NCBI GenBank assembly: GCA_965221905.1
Contig: OZ244922.1
Location: 736,001 to 800,000, forward strand
DNA from: Chloroflexota bacterium
Lineage (GTDB): Bacteria > Chloroflexota > UBA11872 > VXOZ01
Direction of reading: 5' to 3'
DNA length: 64,000 nt
Shown here piece by piece: positions 3,383 to 26,716 of the stretch; the first letter of the stretch is position 1, and each line of letters begins with the position of its first letter. The notes under the pieces are model-generated. The model saw only the letters and a program-made list of their open reading frames with translations, was not told the DNA's origin and did not search any database. The position numbers and the translations under genes are program-made.

Positions 3383-3670
3383 CCGTTCGCCCTGAGCTTG
3401 GTCAAGGGGTGAACGTACAGGAGAAACTCACTGGCGGGAGTGAAGTCTTCCCCGGCCATGCTTCGGCCCTTCGTCAAGCTCAGGACAGGCAAGCTCAGCA
3501 CTAACGAGAAAGGAGCAAGCGGGGAACGAAGCACACTGACACTCTCCTGAGCGCACAGCGCTCTCGCTTCGATAGGCTCAATACGAACGGAAGAGGAGCA
3601 GCGGGGAGCGAAGCAAACTGATACTCTCCTGAGCGCATGGCACTCTCGCTTCGACAGGCTCAAGGCAGGC
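3383..3670. repeat. Cluster of family-D palindromes plus an ~83-bp-period direct duplication (3511-3581 / 3594-3663)
   Basis: aggagca(a)gcgggga.cgaagca.actga.actctcctgagcgca...ctctcgcttcga.aggctcaa occurs twice. Confidence 0.75.
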
Positions 3671-3842
3671 AGGCTAGCGCGACCGAAGCAGGGACGATGA
3701 CCGCATTCAATTGGCGCTCTAGTGCATGAGCATTGCCGTAGGAAGTGTGCATAATCGGCCACTAAATCGCACCCGTACTGCCGCGTGCTCGGGGGTTTCT
3801 TGCAGATCTTCTCGCATGCGGCAGGCATCGTAATCCAGAAGT

Positions 3843-3851
3843 TGGTATAAT
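3843..3851 (+). promoter_or_regulatory. Extended -10 promoter (TGgTATAAT) upstream of rpsT
   Basis: Consensus TGnTATAAT ~65 bp before the start. Confidence 0.5.
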
Positions 3852-3913
3852 GGGCGAAATGAGCGTAATATGTCGTCACGACATGGTAAAGAGAGCCGAG
3901 GAGACACGAGAAA

Positions 3914-4189
3914 TTGCCCAAGAAACGTGCCGATCCCAAGCGCGCCCGTCGTCAGGAGCAGCGGCGCTTGCGTAACCGTTCCGTGCGCACCAGCTTGAAG
4001 ACCCTTAACCGGAAAGCATCGGATGCAATTGAAGAGGGTGATCAAGAAAACGCGCAGGAGGCCGTATTGCTGGCTTGCGCCCGCTACGACCGCGCCGCCC
4101 GCAAGGGTGTGATTCACACCAACAACGCTGCCAGGCATAAATCGCAGCTTGCGCGCAGGTTTAACCAGGCGTTTAGCACAGCCGGCTAG
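3914..4189 (+). CDS. rpsT: 30S ribosomal protein S20
   Basis: KRARRQ..RRLRNRSVRTSLKT...DRAARKGVIHTNNAARHKSQL; GAGGAG RBS. Confidence 0.97.
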   Translation: MPKKRADPKRARRQEQRRLRNRSVRTSLKTLNRKASDAIEEGDQENAQEAVLLACARYDRAARKGVIHTNNAARHKSQLARRFNQAFSTAG

Positions 4190-4229
4190 AGTTAACCGCG
4201 CTGCTTCAAGACCAAGTAAGAATCTTCTG

Positions 4230-4274
4230 CCTCGCGCCTACCGCTTGACGGGAAGCGCGAGGTTCGGTTTTTCT
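4230..4274 (+). terminator. Intrinsic terminator of rpsT
   Basis: cctcgcgc...gcgcgagg stem followed by a T-run. Confidence 0.65.
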
Positions 4275-4337
4275 ATGCGATCATTTAGATAGCTACCGGA
4301 ATCACGCCGGCTAGAATGTGCCTTGTCGGCGCGATTG

Positions 4338-5312
4338 CTAGCGTTTGCTGGCGATGGAGCACAACCCAATCACGAGCAGGTCCAGCGCGGTGGCCGGATC
4401 AAGCTTGCTGCGCTTGATAGCAAAGTCGGTGCGCGCGACGTGGGCGTGGATCGCTGCCAACTGGTCGACGCTGAAGCGACGCGCTTGGGAGATGACGCGG
4501 TTGACCGCTCGCGGCGGCGCCCGCGTGAGGCCGATGGCGCGCGCCACCTCATTAGGCGCCTGCTCGGTGCGCAAAGCGTGTTTGGCCCGGAGAACGAGGC
4601 GGAATTGGCGGGCAATCATCACCAGCACGTAACCGGGTTCCTGGTTCGGCAGATCGTGGAGGAGCGCCAACGCTTGCCGTCGTCTGCCGTCGGCTACCGC
4701 GTCCGCAAAGGCAAAGATGTTCGATTCCCGCGACTGCGGCACCAGCAGATGAACGTCTTCTTCGCTGATCGTGCCCGTGCGGTTTCGGTAGAGCGCTAGC
4801 TTGGCAAGCTCTTGCTCAATGGTGTCCCGGTCGGGCAGCACTGCTGCCAGGTGCTCCGCCGCACGGTGGTTAATGCTGCAGCCGAACCGGGGCGCGTTTG
4901 CTTCGATCCAGGAAACCTGCGGCGCTCCTCTGCGTTGGTCGGCAGTATCTACCGTTGCCTGCGGAAGCTCCCGCAGCGCCTTGGTGAGCGCGGTGGTCTC
5001 TCTCCCACGGGGCAAGGCATTATCCACCAGTACCAGGGCGCAGTGGTCAGGGACATGCGGTAAGTACGCGAGTAGCCCGTCGCGCAACGGCTTCTCCTTG
5101 AGGCAACGGCTCAAGAGGCCGCGCACGTTGACGAGCTTCGCGCCACCCATGAACGGCCAGGTGTCGCAGTGCACCTGCAGGGCCTCCATGTCGATGACAT
5201 CGCCATCCAAGACCACGCGATTGAGGTCGGCGATAGCCCCTATATCCGCCGCGAGCTTCGCGACTGCCTCCTGGATGGTGCCTTTGCTGTGTCCGATGTA
5301 ACAGCGGATCAT
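4338..5312 (-). CDS. holA: DNA polymerase III delta subunit
   Basis: PFMGGAKLVNV, QELAKLALY, NIFAFADAV, IARQFRL, D.AIK; convergent with rpsT as is typical. Confidence 0.9.
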   Translation of the reverse strand: MIRCYIGHSKGTIQEAVAKLAADIGAIADLNRVVLDGDVIDMEALQVHCDTWPFMGGAKLVNVRGLLSRCLKEKPLRDGLLAYLPHVPDHCALVLVDNALPRGRETTALTKALRELPQATVDTADQRRGAPQVSWIEANAPRFGCSINHRAAEHLAAVLPDRDTIEQELAKLALYRNRTGTISEEDVHLLVPQSRESNIFAFADAVADGRRRQALALLHDLPNQEPGYVLVMIARQFRLVLRAKHALRTEQAPNEVARAIGLTRAPPRAVNRVISQARRFSVDQLAAIHAHVARTDFAIKRSKLDPATALDLLVIGLCSIASKR

Positions 5313-5388
5313 CGCTGTGCCCTTCTCGATGAATGCCTATCTGGGGACAGGCCTGTGCCTGAGTCCGTTACGTTGCGTCGAATCTTCA

Positions 5389-5503
5389 TGTCGTTCCGAG
5401 CGCAGCGGCGAACCAGAGTTCGAGAAATCTAGAGCGTGAGATGTAAGATCTTCCGCCGCGGAGTTTATCCTGAGCCTGCCGAAGGGCTCCTCAGAGAATG
5501 ACA
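5389..5503. repeat. Composite repeat (family F, tgtcgttccgagcgcagcg...agaatgaca) with a nested family-D core
   Basis: Termini resemble the element at 30625-30735; internal tcctgagcctgccgaaggg. Confidence 0.6.
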
Positions 5504-5549
5504 GGTCGAGCAGCCACACTTTACTTGCGCCTGCCTTCTGTTCCACGTT

Positions 5550-6287
5550 TCAACACTGCCTCAACATCCCACCGGCAATCAGAGGCGGCACTTCCGAAAG
5601 CTGAGTGACGGTGGGAGCGGTAACCGTCTGCTCAGAGCGCGTGCGATTTAGCCAAATACAGTGCCAACCTGCCGAAATTGCACCACCAACGTCTGCCTGA
5701 GGGTTGTCCCCGATGAAGAGCAGTTCGCTGGGTTTGAGGCCCAATTCCTCAGCACTTCGTTCGAAAATCTCCCGCTGCGGCTTGGCCACACCAATGTCTC
5801 CCGAGATAACGACGGAAGTAAAATTCTCAGCAATACCTGTTCGCTGTAGCTTTTGCCGTTGCTGATTGCCGTCGCCGTTGGTGATCAGGCCCAAGGGGTA
5901 CGCCGAGAGCGCCTCAAGGCAGGGCAATACGTCAGGATAGAGCGACCAGCTATCCTCGTACAAAGCGAGGTAGCGTGCGAAAATGTCGCTCACTTCTTCG
6001 TCGGTGAGCGGCTGGCTGTCGGGTTCGGAATCTTGCTGCATTGCGAGTACCTGCTGTACCCGCCAGGTGCGCTGCGCGGCAAAGGTCAATTCACCTGCTA
6101 CATAGCGTTGCCAGCCACGCTCCGCCGCTGCATGCCAAGCGGCGGCAAAGTCTGGAAAGGCAAGCCACCGCTGCGGCTCATTCCCACCAGCAAGAAGTGT
6201 GGGATAGAGTCTGGACAACGCCGCAAGTTCGGCGGCGTCATGGTCGAGCAGCGTACCATCCAGATCAAAGACAATTCCGCGAATCAT
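5550..6287 (-). CDS. HAD family hydrolase (YjjG/YfnB-like)
   Basis: FDLDGTL, ITNG, KP, IGDNPQADVGGA motifs I-IV. Confidence 0.92.
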   Translation of the reverse strand: MIRGIVFDLDGTLLDHDAAELAALSRLYPTLLAGGNEPQRWLAFPDFAAAWHAAAERGWQRYVAGELTFAAQRTWRVQQVLAMQQDSEPDSQPLTDEEVSDIFARYLALYEDSWSLYPDVLPCLEALSAYPLGLITNGDGNQQRQKLQRTGIAENFTSVVISGDIGVAKPQREIFERSAEELGLKPSELLFIGDNPQADVGGAISAGWHCIWLNRTRSEQTVTAPTVTQLSEVPPLIAGGMLRQC

Positions 6288-6563
6288 TGATTCACCTTGG
6301 TTTTCAGTTCACGTAGGGAATTCTAACTCCAAAGAGGAAGCCGCAACGAATTGCCTTAGGCCCGGCGCTCAATGCCTTGTCTAAGTGTCAAAGCCGAATC
6401 GGCAAAATGGTTGGAAACTCTTCCTCAACATTTCAGAGAGAGAGCATCTCTTATATATGGTACATTTTGTCGGAATGCAGTAACAGTCGCTTTCAATAGA
6501 CAAGAGAGTACATGGCAGGGCCATTCGAGATTCGCGACCCGATTCATGGCTTTATCGAGTTAG

Positions 6564-7749
6564 GAAAGGTCTGAGCAAGTCGGGATATGCATCGGTTTAT
6601 GGGTATGTGCGGGATTGTGGGGTGGTTTGAGGTGTGTCTTGGCATGTGGGAGGGGCTGTTTTGGCTTTGATGCGGTCCCGTTGGAAGCGCAATACGCTCC
6701 TGGCCGTGTTTTGGGCGCACTGCTCCCGTGTCATGTTGCCAACTGGCGTGCGGCCGTCATCACATTGGTCAGCCCCAGCAGCAACGCCAGCCGTTGCCTG
6801 TTCTTGGACAGACCCCGGTAGCGCACCGTGGCGTAGCCGAAGTGCCGCTTCACCCACAGGAACGGATGCTCTACTTTGGCCCTAACCGATGCTTTGCGCT
6901 GCTCTGCCAGCGCCGCCGCGCTCTCAGGCGCCAGTTTCCGCCGCAGCCCCGGCTTGAGCGCCACCTGCCACGCTACGGCGCGCCCCTGATGCTCCGGTCG
7001 CTTCTGCACCCCCACGTACCCGGCGTCTCCCCACACCTGCTGCTCTGCGCCGTGCAGCAACGCCGCCGCTTGCGTTACGTCGTGCACGTTGGCCGATGTG
7101 GTGGTGAAGCTATGCACGAGCCCCGTCTGTGCGTCGACGCCGATGTGCAGCTTCATCCCAAAGTAATACTGGTTCCCCTTCTTCACCTGCCGCATCGCCG
7201 GGTCTCGCTCCCCCTCTCGGTTCTTCGTCGATGTCGGCGCCGCGATGATGGTCGCGTCCACTACCGTCCCCGCTCGCAGCCGCAAGCCCCGACCTGCCAA
7301 ATGCGCGTTGATCTCCGCCAACAACCCCTCTCCTAACCGGTGCTTCTCCAGCAAATGCCGAAAGTGCAGAATAGTCGTCTCGTCCGGCAGCGCCTCTGAC
7401 AGCCGCAGCCCCACGAACCGCCGCACCGGTTCTACCTCGTACAGCATGTCCTCCATCCCAGGATCGCTCAGGTTGTAGAACAACTGCACGCAGTGTATCC
7501 GCAGCATTACCGACAAGGGATACGGCCGCCGCCCCCGCCCTGGCTTGGGATAGTACGGCGCAATGCGCGCCTCCATCTCCGCCCACGGGAGCAGCGCGTC
7601 CATCCGCTCCAAGAACTTCTCCCGGCGCGTCTTGCGCTTCTTCTGCGCGTACTCCAAGTCGGCAAACGTCGGTTGCTCCATTACCCAGCTCCTCACCGTA
7701 TCCTGCTTTCTTGCTATGATACTATGCCAGGGACTTGTTCAGAGTTTTC
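6564..7749 (-). mobile_element. Complete IS5-family insertion sequence (1186 bp)
   Basis: Imperfect 18-bp terminal IRs gaaaggtctgagcaagtc (6564-6581) and gacttgttcagagttttc (7732-7749); TTAG duplication at 6560-6563 and 7750-7753. Confidence 0.93.
6731..7681 (-). CDS. IS5 family (IS5 subgroup) DDE transposase
   Basis: KRKTRREKFLERMD, LPDETTILHFRHLLE, VDATII, YFGMKLHIGVD, WGDAGY, RAKVEHPF; GAGGAG RBS before ATG 7681. Confidence 0.96.
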   Translation of the reverse strand: MEQPTFADLEYAQKKRKTRREKFLERMDALLPWAEMEARIAPYYPKPGRGRRPYPLSVMLRIHCVQLFYNLSDPGMEDMLYEVEPVRRFVGLRLSEALPDETTILHFRHLLEKHRLGEGLLAEINAHLAGRGLRLRAGTVVDATIIAAPTSTKNREGERDPAMRQVKKGNQYYFGMKLHIGVDAQTGLVHSFTTTSANVHDVTQAAALLHGAEQQVWGDAGYVGVQKRPEHQGRAVAWQVALKPGLRRKLAPESAAALAEQRKASVRAKVEHPFLWVKRHFGYATVRYRGLSKNRQRLALLLGLTNVMTAARQLAT

Positions 7750-8990
7750 TTAGATGAATGGGAGCGCGATATAGTCAATCATCCAGTGTTTCAGCGCTTG
7801 CGCCGAATTCGCCAATTGGGACTGACGGACATGGTCTATCCCGGAGCAACGCACTCTCGATTCGAACACTCGCTCGGCGTCATGCACGTTGCCACGAGGA
7901 TGTTCGAAGCGATCGTGGATCGTAGGCGGGATTTTCTTAGAGCCGCGTACAAATACGATGATGCGGGGCTTGCCCGGGACAAAAGGATTCTCAGACTAGC
8001 AGCATTGCTGCATGACGTAGGCCACGCTCCCTTCTCACATGGTGGCGAGGGCTTGATGCCGGAGATTGAAAAAGATAGGCAATTTGGGCATGAGCAATAC
8101 TCGGCTGCTATAGTCGCTAACTTGATGAGAGACGTGATTGAAAGCCATCCCCTCAATCAAAACCATGAGATAAAGGCGCAAGACATTGCAGATTTCTTAG
8201 AAGGCAAGGCATCTGTAGGTCGACGTCTGCTTTGGGCGAATCTGGTTGACGGGCAGTTGGACGCCGATCGCGCTGATTATCTCTTAAGAGACTCACACCA
8301 CATTGGTGTGACTTATGGGCACTTCGATCTGCAGAGACTGCTAACAACACGAACTGTTGTGGAGGATTCGGATCGCGGATCGCCTGCCTTAGCCGTCGAA
8401 GAAGGAGGCCTACATGCTGCCGAAGGCCTGATCATCGCGCGTTACATGATGTTTACACAGGTTTATTTTCATCGAGTTCGACGCGCGTACGACCGCCACT
8501 TGGCTGGAGCTTTGCGAATGTTGCTCGAGCAATCTGGGGGTTTCTTTCCTCCACCTATAGGCGAGAAGAATCTTGGGGAATTCATTGAGTGGGAGGATTG
8601 GCGTGTCTTGGGGCGACTTGCATCAAGAGATGGCGGTTCGGATGGAGAGATCATCCGATCTCGAAACCATGACCGCTGCGTATTCGAAACGCCCGAATCA
8701 CCGGAACTTAAGGATCGGGAGCTTCTAGCGGAAATTCGAGTGGAATTAGCTGATAGAATAAGCTTTGTAGATACAGCAGAGAAGTCCCTGTATAAGTTCG
8801 ACAACTCAGAAGTGTGGATCCTCCGCGACGCTAGGCGGGGAACGGATAGCGTCGACAGTCTTTCCAATTTGTCCTCGGTAGTTAGAGGTCTAAGGGCAGT
8901 AAATCAACGTCGCTTGTATGTGCCTATGGCACAACGTGACCACTGCCGGAAGGTCGTTGAACGTTTGACGGGAAATCGGGAGTAGTTTAA

Positions 8991-9560
8991 ATGAAAACGG
9001 ACTTACGCTTAGAATGGGAAAGATACGCGCTAATTGTAGAATTAGCAAAGCGCCTCCAAGGCAATAGCTGGCAATTTGGCAAAACGGCGCTGCAAAAGCT
9101 CATCTACCTCTTACAGGAAGTGTACAACGTAGACTGTGGCTATGAATTTCGTCTCTACACCTATGGGCCGTTCACGTCGCAAGTGTTGCAGGACCTTGAT
9201 CTGGTCGAATCGTTTGGTGGGGTCAAAGTCATCCCTAAGCGCGAGGGTCTTGATGGTTATCAAATAGAGCCAAATGGTAACTGCGAACGCGTTAAGGAGA
9301 AGGCGACAAATTATCTAGATGAAATTAGCGATGACTTAGACACACTAATCTCAGAGTATGGCCGCTTTTCTGCCAAAGAACTAGAGATGCGGGCAACGAT
9401 AGTCTTTGTGGAACGAGAGATGAATAGAGACCATGGCTCAGTATTGAGAGAGGCACTCGTGCGGGTAGTAAGCGACATCAAGCCCTACTTCACCGAGGAG
9501 GAGATTGAAGCTGCCGTGGAAGAGCTCCAAGCGAAGGGACATTTGGAGGTGGCAGGGTGA
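8991..9560 (+). CDS. YwgA-like / Panacea (SocA, DUF4065)-like protein
   Basis: GKTALQKLIYLLQ...F..YTYGPF...KELEMRATIVFV; 5 bp after the HD gene. Confidence 0.7.
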   Translation: MKTDLRLEWERYALIVELAKRLQGNSWQFGKTALQKLIYLLQEVYNVDCGYEFRLYTYGPFTSQVLQDLDLVESFGGVKVIPKREGLDGYQIEPNGNCERVKEKATNYLDEISDDLDTLISEYGRFSAKELEMRATIVFVEREMNRDHGSVLREALVRVVSDIKPYFTEEEIEAAVEELQAKGHLEVAG

Positions 9561-11335
9561 TGGATTCTAGACTGACTGGCCGTTACGCTTCTCTAGCGAT
9601 CAATGTGCCCATGCCCCCGCCGCATTGGGCGTTGTTGGAGCGGGAGTTGTTGCGGGCGCAGGAAGCTGCGTGCGCGGCGTTCTATGCCAAGTACTTCGAC
9701 GAGCGCGGCTACTTGCTTTGCATCCCGCGCTGGGGCGGGAACGACGGCCCCGACGACGCGGGTGAAAACTTGCTCAATTGGCCCATGCTCCACGCGCTCG
9801 GCGCCTCGGACAGCGTCTTGGCAATGTATAAGCAGGGCTGGGACGGACATCTGCGCCAGTATTCCGAGGCAAAGACCGTGCATGTGCCCATGGCCCGTGA
9901 AGGCATGTACTACAAAGAATTCTCCGTGATGTTCGACTGGATGCATCACGGCGAGTGGATCTCGCCGTTTATCCTGGAGCCGCTTAGTAATCCGGCAGAT
10001 CACCGCTACGAGCAGCGTATCCGCCGCTATGCCGGATTCTACATGGATGAAGACCCACAAGCACTGAATTACGACCCGGAGCATAACCTCATCCGCAGCA
10101 TGTTCAACGGCAGCCGAGGACCGATGCTGCGCAAGTCTACCGCGCTCGACTGGGCAGGCGACCCCATCGAGGTGGCGGGGCGCTTCGATGCCAAGCACGG
10201 CGAAAACAGTTTTTCCCAGATGCTCGACCACTTCCGGGACTATAACGACGTCGCGGGCGATCATCCCCTTAACCTCGCCGTCACTACTGTCGCTCTTACC
10301 GCCTTTGCCCTCACCGGCGAAGCCAAGTACCGCGACTGGATAGTCCGGTACGTGGACGGTTGGGTGGCGCACACCAAAGCGAACAACGGCATCATACCCA
10401 CGAATATTGGGCTGGATGGTTCCCTAGGCGGCGCGTGCGACGGCAAGTGGTATGGCGGCGTCTACGGCTGGGGCTTCTCCGTGATCGACCATAATACCGG
10501 CAAACTCGCGCACCGTCCGGCGTTCCAGCAACGCGCCGTCTACGGCTTTGGCAACGCGCTGCTCATGACCGGCGACCAGAGCTACCTCGCCGTCTGGCGC
10601 GAGATGCTGGATGCTGTGAATGCTAATGAGAAGATCGTTGACGGCAAGCCCACGTACCCCTACATGTACGGCGACGCGTATGGCGAAGAGGGCTGGTATG
10701 ATTTTCGGCCGGAGCCGTTTGCGGCCGGGGCCCATGAACTCTACTACCTGTCGATGGACCCGCAGGACTTGGCCCGTGCGCCGCAGGACCCCTGGTACGA
10801 CTTCCTGGCCGGCAGGAACCCCGACTATCCGGTGGAAGCGCTGCAGCGCGACTATGCGACTGTGCGGCAGCGGATAGAGAAGGTGCGGCGCGACGCTACC
10901 ACAACGGACACCCGGCTCTCCGATGATATGAACGCCTTCAATCCCGCCATTACCGACGCGCTCATCCGGCTTACGCTCGGGGGCTTCCCAACGGGACGCG
11001 AGGGCGGGCCGCTCTATTGCCGCCTACGCTACTTCGATCCTGCCCGCCGCCGTGCCGGGCTGCCGGAAGACGTAGCGGCTCTTGTCGATCACCTAACGGC
11101 CGCGGAAGTTGGCGTAACGCTCGTTAACCTCGATCCCGTGGAAGAACGCACGCTCATCGTGCAGGGCGGCGCGTATGCGGAACACCAGTTTATCAGTGCC
11201 ACGGCTGGGGGCATTACGACTGAGGTGAACGGCCCAAACCTTGTCGTCCGTCTCGCGCCCGGCGCAGGTGAGCGCATCACGCTCACCATGCAACGCTACG
11301 CGAACCAGCCGACGCTCCGATTTCCGTGGGTGTAA
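9557..11335 (+). CDS. Conserved hypothetical protein (592 aa; aromatic-rich, possibly an alpha/alpha-barrel carbohydrate-active fold)
   Basis: Long ORF with strong GC3 bias; WGGNDGPDD, DWMHHGE, RYFDP..RRAGLPEDVAALV; function not recognisable. Confidence 0.75.
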   Translation: MMDSRLTGRYASLAINVPMPPPHWALLERELLRAQEAACAAFYAKYFDERGYLLCIPRWGGNDGPDDAGENLLNWPMLHALGASDSVLAMYKQGWDGHLRQYSEAKTVHVPMAREGMYYKEFSVMFDWMHHGEWISPFILEPLSNPADHRYEQRIRRYAGFYMDEDPQALNYDPEHNLIRSMFNGSRGPMLRKSTALDWAGDPIEVAGRFDAKHGENSFSQMLDHFRDYNDVAGDHPLNLAVTTVALTAFALTGEAKYRDWIVRYVDGWVAHTKANNGIIPTNIGLDGSLGGACDGKWYGGVYGWGFSVIDHNTGKLAHRPAFQQRAVYGFGNALLMTGDQSYLAVWREMLDAVNANEKIVDGKPTYPYMYGDAYGEEGWYDFRPEPFAAGAHELYYLSMDPQDLARAPQDPWYDFLAGRNPDYPVEALQRDYATVRQRIEKVRRDATTTDTRLSDDMNAFNPAITDALIRLTLGGFPTGREGGPLYCRLRYFDPARRRAGLPEDVAALVDHLTAAEVGVTLVNLDPVEERTLIVQGGAYAEHQFISATAGGITTEVNGPNLVVRLAPGAGERITLTMQRYANQPTLRFPWV

Positions 11336-11447
11336 GAAGATAGGATGTGCCTCAAAAGTTGTCCGTTCCTGCTGAGCACTTCGACAAGCCCAGCACAGGC
11401 CTGTCGAAGCATGAACGGACATCGCGCCGTTGCCCATTCGTATCGCC

Positions 11448-12464
11448 TTACGCAGGAGAGGTCTCGCTGCTGTTGAGCAGAGCCGCCACGCGCTCGTTGA
11501 TCTTGCCGGTGACGTCCTTGGCGACGGTCTGTTGGGCCAGACGCAGGGTGCTGGCGATGGCCTTGGCGTTGGAGCGGCCGTGGGCGATGATGACGGCCTT
11601 GTTCAGTCCCACCAGTGGGGCGCCGCCGTACTCCTCGTAGTCCAAGCGCACGCGGACACGGTCGAAAGCCGGTTTTGCCAGCAACGCGCCGAGCATCGTG
11701 CGTGGGTTAGCGCGCAGCTCCGTCTTCAGCAACGTGCCGAAGAACTCGGCAGCGCCTTCCATTGTCTTGAGCGCTATGTTGCCGGTATAGCCGTCGCACA
11801 CCACCACGTCCACCGTGTCGGTGAGAATATGGCGTCCCTCGATGTTGCCGACGAAGTTGAGCGGAGCTTCCTTCAGCAGCGCGTAGGCTGCCAGAGAGAG
11901 TTCGTTCCCTTTGGTTGGCTCTTCGCCAATTGAAAGCAAGCCGACGCGGGGATTTGGCACGCCGTACACCCGAGTGGAATAGATGCTGCCCATGAGGCCG
12001 AATTGTTGGAGTTGACGCGGCTTGCAGTCGGCGTTGGCTCCCATGTCGATGAGGAGCGTCGGGTGCGTTGTACGGGCGGGAATCAGAGCGATGAGCGCCG
12101 GACGGCTGATACCGGTAATGCGTCCGAACGCCATGAGCGCCGCTGCCATCGTCGCTCCACTGTGACCGGCGCTTACTAGTGCTTTCCCCTCCCCTCCCTT
12201 TACCAGGTCGCAGGCGACACGGATTGACGACTGGGGACGTTGCCGCACAGCCGTGGCGTGATCGTGCATGGTAATAACGTCCGGCGCGTGGCGGATCGTC
12301 AGCGGCAGGTCGGCAGTGTCGTGTTTGCGCAGCTCAGCTTCCAGGAGGTCGTGTTGGCCGACGAGGATGATTGGTATGGTGGAGGAACGCGTGGCCTGTA
12401 CCGCTCCGGCAACGATTGCCTGCGGGGCTAGATCGCCGCCCATTGCGTCGAGCACGATTGCCAA
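11448..12464 (-). CDS. plsX: Phosphate acyltransferase PlsX
   Basis: DAMGGDLAP, SAGHSGA, DMGANAD, CDGYTGN, YGGAPLVG, AHGRS. Confidence 0.97.
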   Translation of the reverse strand: MAIVLDAMGGDLAPQAIVAGAVQATRSSTIPIILVGQHDLLEAELRKHDTADLPLTIRHAPDVITMHDHATAVRQRPQSSIRVACDLVKGGEGKALVSAGHSGATMAAALMAFGRITGISRPALIALIPARTTHPTLLIDMGANADCKPRQLQQFGLMGSIYSTRVYGVPNPRVGLLSIGEEPTKGNELSLAAYALLKEAPLNFVGNIEGRHILTDTVDVVVCDGYTGNIALKTMEGAAEFFGTLLKTELRANPRTMLGALLAKPAFDRVRVRLDYEEYGGAPLVGLNKAVIIAHGRSNAKAIASTLRLAQQTVAKDVTGKINERVAALLNSSETSPA

Positions 12465-12572
12465 GCAGAATCCTCCTTGTGGTTTTGTTACCCTACTGCG
12501 GCTGGCATCATTATACTACTAGGCAACGCCCTGATGAATTGTCTAGGACTAGCCCTGGCTGAGGAGCGCAGA

Positions 12573-13427
12573 ATGCAGACCCGAAAGTCCGCCAACATCA
12601 TTGGACACAGAGATGTGTATTCCGTGTCTCTACTGTGGAAGACGTTCCTTCTCTCTCTAATGCTGTTGTGCTCGCCCATAATGGCGTCAGGTTGTGCATC
12701 GCAGCAGACTACGACACTCGTTGTGTACGCCGCGTCATCACTCACGGAGGCGTTTACGGCCATCGGCGCGGAGTTCGAGGCGCGCAACGCCGACGTGCGG
12801 GTTATCTTCAATTTTGCCGGTTCCCAGGCACTCAGTACGCAGATAGAGCACGGCGCCGTAGCCGATGCCTTCGCCTCGGCAGACACCCTACACATGGACC
12901 GTTTGCAGGAGATGAATCTGCTGGCTGAAGGGCCCGTAGTCTTTGCGCAAAACCGCCTGATCGTGGTGCTGCCCGCGGCAAATCCGGCCGGGCTAACCAG
13001 TTTGGGAGACCTTGCCCGTCCCGGTGTGCGTATCGTTATCGCGCAGCAAAATGTGCCCGTGGGCCGCTACACGCGGCAGGTGCTTGCAAACCTGAGCGCC
13101 GACGCCATATACGGGAGCAGCTTTCAGGCAGCCGTGCTTGCCAACGTTCGTTCGGAGGAACTCAACGTGCGCCAGGTATTCGCGAAAGTTGTGCTCGGTG
13201 AAGCGGATGCGGCCTTCGTCTACGCGAGCGACGTTGGCGCGTCAACCGCCGACGTTGCGACCATTGAGATTCCTGAGCAATCTAATGTAGCGGCGGCGTA
13301 TCCAATCGCGCTGCTGGCGGCTTCTAAAGAGAAAGCGCTCGCGCAGCGTTTCATTGAGTTCGTGCGTTCTCCAATGGCGCAGGATATCTTGTGGCAGGCG
13401 GGACTGCAGCCGGTAGAAACGCAATGA
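12573..13427 (+). CDS. modA: Molybdate ABC transporter substrate-binding lipoprotein (start uncertain)
   Basis: YAASSLTEAF, NFAGSQAL, VPVGRY, NVRQV, GEADAAFVYASD; lipobox ASGC. Confidence 0.92.
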   Translation: MQTRKSANIIGHRDVYSVSLLWKTFLLSLMLLCSPIMASGCASQQTTTLVVYAASSLTEAFTAIGAEFEARNADVRVIFNFAGSQALSTQIEHGAVADAFASADTLHMDRLQEMNLLAEGPVVFAQNRLIVVLPAANPAGLTSLGDLARPGVRIVIAQQNVPVGRYTRQVLANLSADAIYGSSFQAAVLANVRSEELNVRQVFAKVVLGEADAAFVYASDVGASTADVATIEIPEQSNVAAAYPIALLAASKEKALAQRFIEFVRSPMAQDILWQAGLQPVETQ

Positions 13428-14284
13428 GCCGCTCGCCGTCACCGCCCTCATTCCCTCGCAAGCGGGAAGCCAGCACCCCTCGCTCCACAGGGAGTGACAC
13501 CGGTCTGCGCTCGCTCTTTCTCGTCCCAGCGCTGCTCTTCGCGGCCTTTGTGGCGCTGCCGTTGCTGGCGCTGATTCTGCGCGCCGCAATGACGGGAAAC
13601 CTGCTGCAGCAGCTTGCACAGCCGATTGTGCTGAGCGCCCTCAGGCTCAGCGCGCTGACGAGTCTGGCATCGCTTTTCATCATCGTGCTCGTCGGGACGC
13701 CCACCGCCTACTTGCTCGCACGGAGCACGTTCCCCGGCAAGCGGCTCTTGGATGTCTTGATAGATGTGCCGTTGGCGCTGCCGCCCGTGGTTGTCGGCGT
13801 TGCCTTGCTGCTTGTCTTCGGCCGCCTGGGAGTGCTGGGACGGTGGCTCCAGCCGCTCGGCATTGAGATTGCGTTCACGACCCTTGCGGTGGTGTTGGCG
13901 CAGGTATTCGTTGCCGCGCCCTTCTACGTGCGGTCGGCGAAGATCGGTTTCGCGCGGGTTGAACCGGAGCTTGAAGAGATTGCCGTCACGCTCGGCGCAT
14001 CGACCTGGCAGACGTTGCGCTACGTCACCGTGCCGCTGGCGTGGCCCGCGCTTGTGGGTGGCGCTGTGCTGAGCTGGGCGCGGGCGCTGGGCGAGTTTGG
14101 CGCTACCATTATGTTCGCCGGTAACTTCACCGGTCGCACGCAGACGATGCCCCTGGCCATCATGACGGCGTTGGAGTCCGATCTCCAGACCGCCATCGTA
14201 TTGGCGACATTGTTGGTGATAGCCACTTTTGTCGCTCTCTTTCTCTTCCGTTGGATCGGTCGGCGTTTTGGGGACGTGTGGTAG
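13424..14284 (+). CDS. modB: Molybdate ABC transporter permease
   Basis: PLALPPVVVG, WARALGEFGATIMFAGN..GRTQTMPLAI; ATGA overlap with modA. Confidence 0.93.
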   Translation: MSRSPSPPSFPRKREASTPRSTGSDTGLRSLFLVPALLFAAFVALPLLALILRAAMTGNLLQQLAQPIVLSALRLSALTSLASLFIIVLVGTPTAYLLARSTFPGKRLLDVLIDVPLALPPVVVGVALLLVFGRLGVLGRWLQPLGIEIAFTTLAVVLAQVFVAAPFYVRSAKIGFARVEPELEEIAVTLGASTWQTLRYVTVPLAWPALVGGAVLSWARALGEFGATIMFAGNFTGRTQTMPLAIMTALESDLQTAIVLATLLVIATFVALFLFRWIGRRFGDVW

Positions 14285-14300
14285 GCACCGGGCATGAAAC

Positions 14301-25097: not shown

Positions 25098-25850
25098 ATG
25101 CCGTCCGCGATTGAATGGACAGACGAAACCTGGAACCCGGTAACGGGCTGTACTCGCGTTTCGCCAGGCTGCGATAACTGCTATATGTACGCAATGTATC
25201 CGCGCCTGAAGGGTATGGGTGTTAAGGGATACAGTACTGCTCCAAGTGATATTCAATTGCTACCCGAGCGATTAGTCTTACCGCTAACTTGGAAAAAGCC
25301 AAGACGTGTATTTGTTAACAGCATGTCTGATCTCTTCCATTCTCGCGTTCCCTTTGAGTTTGTATTCGAGATGTTCCAAGTAATGCAGCAAGCAGCACTT
25401 GAGCGAGGCCACGAATTTCAAATTCTGACGAAGAGGCCGGGCAGAGCTGTTGCTTGGTGGAAGCAGTATGAAGCAAAATTTCCCGATGGTTGGCACCCGA
25501 ATATTTGGATTGGCACGTCGGTGGAAAACCAAAAGTACGCTCCGCGCCTTACGGTCTTGGCGCGCCTGCCGGCCCCTATCCGATTCGTCTCTGCTGAACC
25601 TTTGCTGGAACAGATCGAATTGACACCTTGGCTAAGAGACGGGACTCTTCAATGGGTGATTACAGGAGGTGAAAGCGGTAATGGCGCAAGACCCATGGAT
25701 TTGGACTGGGTGCGAAGTCTGCGCGACCAGTCAGAAGGCGCAGGAGTGGCTTTCTTCCTAAAGCAGCTTGGTGGAGTAAGGAATAAGCGTGGTGGCGATG
25801 CTGCAGTAATTGATGGCCGTCACTGGCGACAAATGCCTATAACGAACTAG
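25098..25850 (+). CDS. DUF5131 / phage Gp37-Gp68 family three-Cys (radical-SAM-like) protein
   Basis: IEWTDETWNPVTGCTRVSPGCDNCY, FVNSMSDLFH, QILTKR, SAEPLL, WVITGGESG, FFLKQ. Confidence 0.93.
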   Translation: MPSAIEWTDETWNPVTGCTRVSPGCDNCYMYAMYPRLKGMGVKGYSTAPSDIQLLPERLVLPLTWKKPRRVFVNSMSDLFHSRVPFEFVFEMFQVMQQAALERGHEFQILTKRPGRAVAWWKQYEAKFPDGWHPNIWIGTSVENQKYAPRLTVLARLPAPIRFVSAEPLLEQIELTPWLRDGTLQWVITGGESGNGARPMDLDWVRSLRDQSEGAGVAFFLKQLGGVRNKRGGDAAVIDGRHWRQMPITN

Positions 25851-25864
25851 GAACAGCAAGTTCG

Positions 25865-26716
25865 ATGTCATCTCTTTTCGGGGGTAGTTGGACCAATGAG
25901 AAACTAGAAATTCTTAGACAATATTTGGATGCCTACACCACCGCGCTCAAGAGCCAGCCCTTCCAACTCACTTACGTTGACGCTTTCGCAGGGGAGGGTT
26001 CCTACTTGGCTAATTCGGACTATCTTTCGGCGGATTATGAAGATCTCAAGGAATTTCGTGCTGGCTCTCCGCGTATCGCCTTAGAGGTTCAGGACAAGCC
26101 CTTTGATAGGCTTGTATTCGTTGAAAAGGACCCCACTCGTTGCGCATCTCTTAAGTTACTGGAGAGAGAGTTTCCCAATTGTAATATCGGCATTCGCAAT
26201 GAAGATGCCAATAGTGCTCTGCCTGCATTCTGCGCCACTCTTGGTAACTCTGAACGCGCCGTAGTCTTCCTTGACCCTTTCGCCACGCAAGTCTCGTGGA
26301 GCACAGTGCAAGAACTGGCACGGACGAAGAAGATAGACTGCTGGATCTTGTTCCCATTGATGGCAATCGCGCGCATGATGCCTACGACGAGGAATCCGCC
26401 GGATTCGTTAGCGGCACAGCTAGACAGGGTGTTTGGTGGACGCCAGTACTGGGAGGACTTCTACGGTGAATCTCCGCAACAACAATTACCAGGGTTTTCA
26501 GATAAACCCATACAAGAGAGGCTTCAAGGCAGCGACCAAATTGCCTTACGCTACCGTGAAAGACTTGAATCAGAGTTTCTAAGAGTAGCACCAACCCCTC
26601 GAACCTTTAAGAATTCGAAGAACTCTCCGATGTTCGAATTGTTCTTTGCTGCAAGCAACCCAAGAGGAGCGAGTCTCGCAGTGCCTATTGCCGATCACAT
26701 ACTGAAACACTGGTAA
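25865..26716 (+). CDS. tcmP: Three-Cys-motif partner protein (SAM-dependent methyltransferase fold)
   Basis: WT..KL..L..YL, YVDAFAGEG, GSPRIAL, FVEKD, VFLDPF; adjacent to DUF5131. Confidence 0.88.
   Translation: MSSLFGGSWTNEKLEILRQYLDAYTTALKSQPFQLTYVDAFAGEGSYLANSDYLSADYEDLKEFRAGSPRIALEVQDKPFDRLVFVEKDPTRCASLKLLEREFPNCNIGIRNEDANSALPAFCATLGNSERAVVFLDPFATQVSWSTVQELARTKKIDCWILFPLMAIARMMPTTRNPPDSLAAQLDRVFGGRQYWEDFYGESPQQQLPGFSDKPIQERLQGSDQIALRYRERLESEFLRVAPTPRTFKNSKNSPMFELFFAASNPRGASLAVPIADHILKHW

Follow-up and report, generated by a model that had tools for sequence, protein, structure and literature searches.

Insertion-inactivated gene pair of a SAMHD1-like HD hydrolase and a DarG-C-terminal-like partner in a Chloroflexota genome: a candidate toxin-antitoxin-like dNTP-depletion module

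What kind of system is encoded by a two-gene cassette that combines a SAMHD1-like HD hydrolase with a small partner protein, and what is left of it in a genome where the hydrolase gene is broken and the partner gene is intact? The question is raised by a 64,000-nucleotide stretch of the genome of a Chloroflexota bacterium (assembly GCA_965221905.1, contig OZ244922.1, positions 736,001 to 800,000), hereafter termed the window; its genome is designated G000, a sister genome G005, and L numbers denote individual loci. Depletion of deoxynucleoside triphosphates (dNTPs) is an antiviral strategy common to animals (SAMHD1) and bacteria (dGTPases, Clover), and how cells avoid self-harm by the enzymes that carry it out is a current question. 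A first-pass annotation of the window had proposed that the cassette is an uncharacterised toxin-antitoxin or anti-phage system of this type. On the evidence presented below, we lean modestly towards a toxin-antitoxin-like module that would act by dNTP depletion and that is no longer functional in this genome.

The cassette (Table 1) forms a patch of lower G+C content, 0.47-0.51 over positions 8001-9500 compared with 0.59-0.64 in the flanks, and both of its genes lie on the + strand with 5 nt between the HD stop codon and the partner start. The gene content, the gene boundaries, the AT-richer composition and the short gap given in the first-pass annotation were all reproduced. The annotation had also implied a broken gene, by referring to a reconstructed reading frame of 427 amino acids (aa), and had named no cause; the cause is an IS5-family insertion sequence (IS) that splits the coding sequence after codon 16. 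The HD gene of this genome is not intact, and the module is inactive here. The gene starts at position 6512 with MAGPFEIRDPIHGFIE, and the frame of the 5' stub enters the IS and ends within a few codons. The encoded N-terminus, MAGPFEIRDPIHGFIEL, is identical to that of the intact allele in G005 and agrees with the family consensus.

The inserted element has the features of its family: a DDE transposase (NCBIfam NF033581, IS5 family, 329.7 bits against a cut-off of 140; also Pfam DDE_Tnp_1 and DUF772), imperfect terminal inverted repeats that are 81% complementary (at about 6564-6581 and 7732-7749), a 4-bp target duplication (TTAG, at 6560-6563 and 7750-7753) and many copies. Eleven copies at 99.9-100% identity occur in G000, one in the window and the others in ten further places (loci L002-L010), and YTAG duplications surround 9 of the 10 copies checked. 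The near-identity of the copies and their YTAG duplications indicate that the element has been recently active, and point to a recent transposition burst in G000. The empty site is preserved in G005, which aligns to window positions 3493-6563 and 7750-14285, the two segments overlapping by 4 bp; its HD open reading frame (ORF) is intact (427 aa) and encodes a product 99.5% identical to the 411-aa piece in the window, and its partner is 100% identical to that of the window. Public contigs of one sequencing run (X1) span both IS junctions, and one contig of run X3, from another study, joins position 6559 to 7750 without the IS. The insertion is therefore recent and not universal.

The designation of the first gene product as a SAMHD1-like HD hydrolase is well supported. 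The protein matches Pfam HD (2.6e-11; 44.3 bits against a cut-off of 22) and HD_assoc_2 (4.7e-11), and its best sequence matches in the PDB are the Aquifex protein 2HEK (2.1e-46, over residues 6-408), Enterococcus EF1143 (2O6I, 4e-38), 2Q14, 9MR6 and SAMHD1 itself (8.4e-26, that is, about 1e-25). The H...HD...D signature noted earlier is found as RFEHS, LLHDVGH and DADRADYLLRD. Examination of the putative catalytic residues shows that RFEHS, LLHDVGHAPFSH, HEQ and DADRADYLLRD align with the matching motifs of SAMHD1, EF1143 and 2HEK, wherein GHAPFSH and HEQ correspond to the GHxPFSH motif and the HE dyad, whose residues have catalytic roles known from the SAMHD1 literature. Residues H56, H104, D105, H108, H113, E116, H130, D187, D189 and D192 are invariant across 35 HD homologues. 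The protein is thus an HD hydrolase of the SAMHD1/EF1143 type, most likely a dNTP triphosphohydrolase (dNTPase), and by its sequence affinities it belongs to the EF1143/2HEK/YdhJ branch and not to the Dgt branch. EF1143 has been described as a biochemically characterised dNTPase (PMC3190883).

The partner is more divergent. The motifs LQKLIY, YGP and LEMRAT, which had suggested a Panacea/SocA-like protein, are all present, and the Pfam model SocA_Panacea (PF13274, DUF4065) scores 21.0 bits, under its cut-off of 25.7; 11 of the 42 partner-family members match PF13274 at E <= 0.01, the best at 4.3e-5. Since the score falls under the Pfam cut-off, the partner is a divergent Panacea relative and not a Pfam-defined member of the family. 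The earlier assignment holds in its kinship, which emerges from two hidden Markov models (HMMs) of DarG and from the fold, and not in the Pfam threshold. The PADLOC DarG model is matched at positions 161-328 of 329 (E 1.2e-12) and that of NCBIfam at positions 170-338 of 338 (33.7 bits against a cut-off of 250). An AlphaFold2 model built from a 42-sequence alignment reached a mean predicted local distance difference test (pLDDT) value of 91.9 and a predicted template modelling (pTM) score of 0.89. Its sole significant solved-structure match by Foldseek is the DarG chain of M. tuberculosis DarTG (7YK3_B/D; E 7.8e-5, probability 1.00), with a template modelling (TM) score of 0.68 in both directions over 198 columns; the remaining matches are partial winged-helix structures (RTP, MarR, AdcR/ZitR) at E 0.04-0.2 and TM 0.2-0.35. 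A PDB sequence search with the partner gave a chance-level match only (E 0.55), the kinship with DarG being visible there by fold alone. The ESM Atlas returned unnamed clusters and one cluster (score 0.90) in which 13% of the members carry PF13274, which serves as a lead only.

The C-terminal domain through which DarG binds and inhibits DarT is reported to have homologues in DUF4065 proteins (PMC13621843). Taken with the HMM and fold matches, which are confined to the C-terminal part of DarG, this identifies the partner as a free-standing homologue of the toxin-binding DarG C-terminal domain, of divergent Panacea type. No nucleotidyltransferase family was detected in it with Pfam, NCBIfam or PADLOC. 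The label "uncharacterized protein YwgA" of the Joint Genome Institute (JGI) is attached to more than 10 of the 120 listed partner relatives, and the family is linked to B. subtilis YwgA by annotation only; the Panacea model has no match in the B. subtilis control genome, which does have HD_assoc_2. The ywfO-ywgA adjacency in B. subtilis, to which the annotation had appealed, is linked to the present pair through these JGI names. CapRel was considered as a precedent for a Panacea-type sensor and set aside: sensing there is the task of a pseudo-zinc-finger in the antitoxin domain, and the paper brings up Panacea only for flanking ORFs.

The two genes travel together. When one genome per species was scanned by pattern, 44 loci emerged under at least 12 phylum-level labels, among them Chloroflexota, Thermodesulfobacteriota-type "Deltaproteobacteria", Omnitrophota, Nitrospirae, Bacillota, Planctomycetes, Acidobacteriota, Latescibacterota, Spirochaetes, Goldiibacteriota, Armatimonadota and Kiritimatiellia. 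In 35 loci, the gene immediately preceding the partner on the same strand is an intact HD gene (422-466 aa), and an ATGA overlap is frequent at the junction. Four further loci are cut by contig ends (L054, L058, L080 and L091, with a partial HD gene reaching the edge in three), three have a broken or missing HD gene beside an open partner frame (L065, L087, L094) and two are fragments (L092, L093). The features by which Panacea/SocA pairs are recognised in the work of Kurata et al. 2022 (PMC8832971) are found here as well: the gaps in the 35 loci range from -16 to +24 nt, many phyla are represented and the flanking genes vary. The evolutionary distances of the HD proteins and of their partners are correlated (Mantel r 0.82, a value reached by 0 of 999 permutations), and the two are co-inherited as a unit.

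Within the genus, the cassette occupies the window's site in 6 of the 16 relatives (G003, G004, G005, G006, G016 and, on a short contig, G014), and in the 10 other genomes it is missing and the HAD and 592-aa genes that flank it are adjacent. A profile of the partner (E <= 1e-10) detects 13 of 301 Chloroflexota genomes, in 6 of 171 genera. The first-pass annotation would have given up its proposal had the pair been core and syntenic in all relatives; with this occurrence, the pair is not core. The genus harbors three paralogous pair lineages at different loci, with up to two pairs per genome. At the window's site, identity between genomes amounts to 74-82% for the catalytic half of the HD protein, 43-68% for its C-terminal region and 58-77% for the partner, compared with 85-98% for the flanking genes, a distribution that suggests old and mosaic alleles. 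In the extreme case, the partners of G004 (L032/L052) and G005 (L031/L051) are 97% identical, their HD proteins 68% and the HD C-terminal regions 48%, and DNA similarity fails between about window positions 8474 and 9011; in G004, the enzyme gene alone seems to have been exchanged for another allele. Together, these sequence comparisons indicate a horizontally acquired, accessory or mobile two-gene operon of a widespread family. A 507-aa database protein (P0121) consists of the HD protein from the HE motif onward, continuing in-frame into a full partner, and lacks the N-terminal HD motifs; this natural read-through product may represent a genuine fusion or a miscalled pseudogene.

Loss of the HD gene is recurrent. 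One of the paralogous lineages, pair C, has lost it at least three times: by a deletion shared by G000 and G004, by a TAA codon in G005 within the QRLRHINQL motif and by a TGA codon at a different position in G006. The deletion, whose junction is identical in the two genomes, takes away HD codons 1 to about 369 and leaves the upstream sequence joined to the last ~83 HD codons and the partner. The pair C partner frame is open in all 10 of the 10 copies. Since the HD gene of the window is split by the IS and that of the paralogue is deleted, G000 possesses two orphan partners and no intact HD gene; no other copy of a SAMHD1-like HD gene was found in this genome. Beyond the genus, L087 retains only the last ~40 HD codons and the partner beside an IS66 fragment, L094 contains a nonsense codon at an invariant Trp of the HD protein in addition to a frameshift, and L065 (3592-5579) carries a 47-codon HD stub, followed by a DarG-like ORF composed of a macrodomain and a Panacea-like domain, and then by an HD-type partner. 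At L065, two Panacea-type genes thus stand in tandem at the place of the HD body, and no DarT is seen. The converse case is L091, in which the partner is frameshifted. Loss of the HD gene next to an open partner frame would be expected if the enzyme is costly or toxic and the partner is harmless or protective.

Outside the genus, the ORFs flanking the pair, two per side, were compared with Pfam and PADLOC in 38 loci (127 ORFs). In three of them (L056, L063, L068) the pair begins 6 nt past a BrxC/PglY gene (Pfam DUF6079) of a type 3 bacteriophage exclusion (BREX) system and PglXI comes next; in a fourth (L067) BrxC lies upstream and the BREX type 3 context is partial. Extension of the contig of L056 (G041 contig C59, 30000-66000; L111/L112) revealed a complete BREX type 3 operon in the order BrxF, BrxC, HD gene and partner, PglXI, a small ORF, PsyrT-like and PsyrA genes, a PDC-M55C/HEC-05-like gene, BrxH, PglZ and BrxA. 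The pair occupies the same kind of internal slot in this operon as the PsyrT-like/PsyrA genes, a known toxin-antitoxin defence module. Elsewhere, the neighbours include SIR2/ThsA-like (L058), DpdA with PDC-S05 and an integrase (L059), type II and type I restriction-modification (L090 and L094, respectively), nSTAND3 (L093), Fic (L087), an ImmA-like protease (L080) and ParE or ParD (L071, L075), as well as integrases and transposases. The copy in the window does not lie inside a BREX type 3 operon. Tight coupling, BREX type 3 embedding and repeated HD loss together favour the toxin-antitoxin or defence reading.

The combination of the two genes has been listed before. Kurata et al. 2022 (PMC8832971) include HD-domain proteins (CDD YdhJ) in their Dataset S1 as predicted toxin cluster pT33/T34, marked untested, with entries in toxin-then-antitoxin order, overlaps of -4, 0 and -17 nt, and hosts among the Clostridia such as Ammonifex, Desulfofundulus and Caldicellulosiruptor. 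The HD and DUF4065 pairing is therefore already catalogued by the T34 rows, though not examined, and the terms "HD domain", "dGTP" and "phosphohydrolase" are absent from the main text of that paper. A literature search for a study of a Panacea, DUF4065 or YwgA protein paired with an HD dNTPase found none; the supplements of the NetFlax paper (PMC10440598) may list it. The description of the system as uncharacterised, in the first-pass annotation, is accordingly right as regards experiment and too strong as regards the pairing, which is the predicted pair T34. As far as the table describes it, the T34 pair resembles the present one, with an HD protein directly upstream of a DUF4065-type gene and the same layout in related Bacillota among our loci, whereas the window partner falls below the Panacea cut-off and the window HD gene is disrupted.

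Three other systems bear upon the comparison. The similarity to DarTG lies in the partner, which matches a DarG chain over its full length and the C-terminal halves of the DarG HMMs, and in the gene at the toxin position coming first; the window cassette differs in having neither a DarT ADP-ribosyltransferase nor a macrodomain, and an HD hydrolase at the toxin position. In Clover, as described in a bioRxiv 2025 report (PMC12265719), defence is by dNTP depletion, and the HD dNTPase CloA is held in check via the nucleotidyltransferase CloB, which makes the inhibitory nucleotide p3diT. Like the pair considered here, Clover has two genes, an HD dNTPase effector and a restraint, proposed in our case, by the neighbour's product against self-toxicity; unlike CloB, the window partner has no nucleotidyltransferase signature and shows a protein-binding, antitoxin-like fold instead. 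By analogy, Clover would be the closest functional counterpart. Defensive dGTPases (PADLOC dGTPase, NCBIfam antiphage_dGTPase) and human SAMHD1 probably share with the HD protein the dNTP triphosphohydrolase chemistry of the HD superfamily, and its catalytic motifs align with those of SAMHD1; unlike it, these enzymes act alone, whereas the window's HD gene has an obligate neighbour gene and a different branch of origin. Stand-alone defensive dGTPases are reportedly the subject of a 2022 preprint by Tal et al. (10.1101/2021.04.26.441389).

In the mechanism that we consider for the intact module, the partner gene is translationally coupled to the HD gene, and its product would bind the HD enzyme and hold it inactive, as the DarG C-terminal domain does DarT. 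Loss, titration or displacement of the partner, for example upon phage infection, would then free the enzyme, which would drain the dNTP pool and thereby stop DNA replication. In G000, where an IS5-family element has split one HD gene and the second, paralogous one has been deleted, two partners are left without an enzyme.

A number of observations weigh against this mechanism. The HD protein falls short of the models for defensive dGTPases (NF041026, 25.6 bits against 400; NF003701, 26.7 against 383), and the PADLOC dGTPase model (E 3e-10) is matched only at positions 48-145 of 395. To our knowledge, the known enzymes of the SAMHD1/EF1143 type are allosterically controlled housekeeping or immune enzymes and not classical toxins. 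Tight co-adaptation is not evident, since the G004 partner is 97% identical to that of G005 next to an HD protein of 68% identity. The asymmetry of loss between HD gene and partner is not significant by gene length (4 of 4 cases in the genus, P 0.23; 7 of 8 overall, P 0.24), and the non-genus loci were found via the partner, which biases them to intact partners; for these reasons, and because of the frameshifted partner in L091, repeated HD loss is not strong evidence. The remark in the first-pass annotation that loss of the enzyme beside an intact partner fits a toxin-antitoxin pair is therefore upheld insofar as the pattern recurs, and qualified insofar as it is not distinguishable from the gene-length expectation (P ~0.23). 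The ratio of nonsynonymous to synonymous substitution rates (dN/dS) is 0.25-0.32 for the orphan partners versus 0.11-0.22 for the partners of intact pairs; such constraint may reflect an additional role besides neutralising the HD protein of the same pair. This is only a hint, because the pair C partner gene of G000 and G004 looks mosaic, near-identical by the deletion junction and with a dS of 0.35 overall.

The surroundings add to these reservations. The annotation had suggested enrichment of defence islands in the neighbourhood as a check; in a crude count, PADLOC models (1e-10) match 22 of the 127 flanking ORFs (17%), compared with 4 of the 48 control ORFs (8%; 48 of the 51 window ORFs, the transposase, HD and partner genes being left out), and the difference is not significant (Fisher P 0.16). 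About 25 of the 38 loci have ordinary or polysaccharide-gene neighbours, and the cassette in the window sits among housekeeping genes (holA, a HAD hydrolase and plsX) and in no defence island. No relative of the partner was found in collections of plasmids, phages and viral contigs. In view of the non-significant bulk enrichment, the housekeeping flanks and this last negative result, the defence signal rests mainly on the BREX embedding.

Among the rival explanations, the one that survives best is housekeeping control of the dNTP pool, according to which an ordinary dNTPase or nucleotide-sanitising hydrolase of the YdhJ/YwfO type works with a regulatory or adaptor subunit, and the IS marks the decay of a dispensable gene. 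The ordinary neighbourhoods, the missing matches on plasmids and phages, the purifying selection on orphan partners and the JGI name of the partner family all speak for it, as do the HD_assoc_2 proteins present in 9 of 14 control genomes, B. subtilis included. An ordinary pool regulator is harder to reconcile with sporadic spread (6 of 171 genera, and presence or absence at a fixed site in one genus), with the foreign G+C content of the cassette, with fast-evolving, swapped alleles at one site and with up to two paralogous pairs per genome. It also leaves unexpected both the tight setting of the pair in BREX type 3 operons, beside another embedded toxin-antitoxin module, and the fact that the one structural relative found for the partner is an antitoxin domain that inhibits a toxin. 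We hold this explanation to be unlikely.

Rather less likely still is a selfish addiction pair with no anti-phage role, in which a putatively toxic HD protein is neutralised by the partner, the pair persists via post-segregational killing or as genomic junk, and orphan partners confer anti-addiction immunity against copies that arrive anew. A toxin gene placed ahead of its antitoxin, stop and start codons that overlap, a patchy distribution, the catalogued status as a predicted Panacea-type pair and the retention of partners after HD loss, including two orphans in one genome, would all be expected of such a pair; its absence from plasmids, phages and viral contigs, where addiction modules are common, would not, and the BREX embedding with PsyrTA-like genes points to defence. 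Finally, it seems to us very improbable that the partner, instead of inhibiting the HD enzyme by binding to it, serves chiefly as a winged-helix DNA-binding protein that regulates the operon or other genes: the weaker Foldseek matches are winged-helix proteins that cover part of the model, the orphan partners are constrained without their HD proteins and the G004 partner tolerates an HD protein of 68% identity, but the full-length significant match is the DarT-binding DarG domain, strict adjacency, translational coupling and correlated divergence across phyla exceed what a regulator needs, and the two readings can overlap, given that many antitoxins combine toxin binding with autoregulation.

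The features of the cassette in the window, and the second orphan partner of the same genome, are compiled in Table 1. The neighbours of the cassette are holA, the HAD hydrolase gene, the gene for a 592-aa protein, and plsX. The partner stop codon overlaps the GTG start (9557) of the 592-aa gene (9557-11335), whose product is 88-97% conserved in all 16 genus relatives and has no family match in Pfam or NCBIfam. The promoter with a TGgTACATT-type -10 element that had been proposed near position 6458 was not recovered: a consensus scan of positions 6250-9700 gave 2 sites, compared with 2.2 expected by chance, and none near 6458. A terminator scan of the region likewise produced nothing exceeding chance. 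Contigs from RNA libraries of one study (X15, X16) cover parts of 7827-9700, from which strand, level and a single transcript are not readable, and their lack of cover upstream of 6756 is uninformative. A pair of neighbouring ORFs at window positions 25098-26716 yields matches (E ~1e-80) to PADLOC candidate models, PDC-M41B/PDC-M30B and PDC-M41A; the two may be either defence genes or housekeeping genes that resemble them.

Table 1. Features of the disrupted cassette and of the second orphan partner in G000. Positions are those of the window unless a locus is given.
Feature	Position	Strand	Remarks
HD gene, 5' stub	6512..6563	+	start codon and codons 1-16, then TTAG target site 6560-6563
IS5-family insertion sequence	6564..7749	-	1186 bp; transposase ORF 6731-7696 (-)
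HD gene, remainder	7750..8985	+	codons 17-427 and stop (411 codons); HD catalytic domain and C-terminal HD_assoc_2
Partner gene	8991..9560	+	189 aa, intact; DarG-C-terminal/Panacea-like fold
Second orphan partner in G000	L036 (G000:C1:200000-214000), ~5894-6466	-	intact; HD gene reduced to last ~83 codons

The functional proposal of the first-pass annotation is thus plausible; the comparative context gives it better grounds, and it is unproven. A wider and distinctly more tentative form of it, to which we would grant somewhat less than an even chance, is a widespread anti-phage system. In such a system, a DarG-C-terminal/Panacea-like clamp on a SAMHD1-like dNTPase would be released at infection and would act as a second line of defence inside BREX type 3; the phage sensor would be either the partner or the rapidly diverging C-terminal region of the HD protein, and surviving partners would be retained because they neutralise related HD enzymes, incoming or paralogous.

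The copy in the window is a clean natural knockout with an intact allele in a sister genome, and a pointer to the distribution of the family. The family is experimentally accessible, with small genes, intact alleles and BREX-embedded versions as natural contexts. If the clamp-and-release reading is true, the family would restrain its dNTPase with a protein, where Clover uses a nucleotide, and would add a protein-antitoxin answer to the problem of self-harm by dNTPases, using the fold by which DarG silences DarT.

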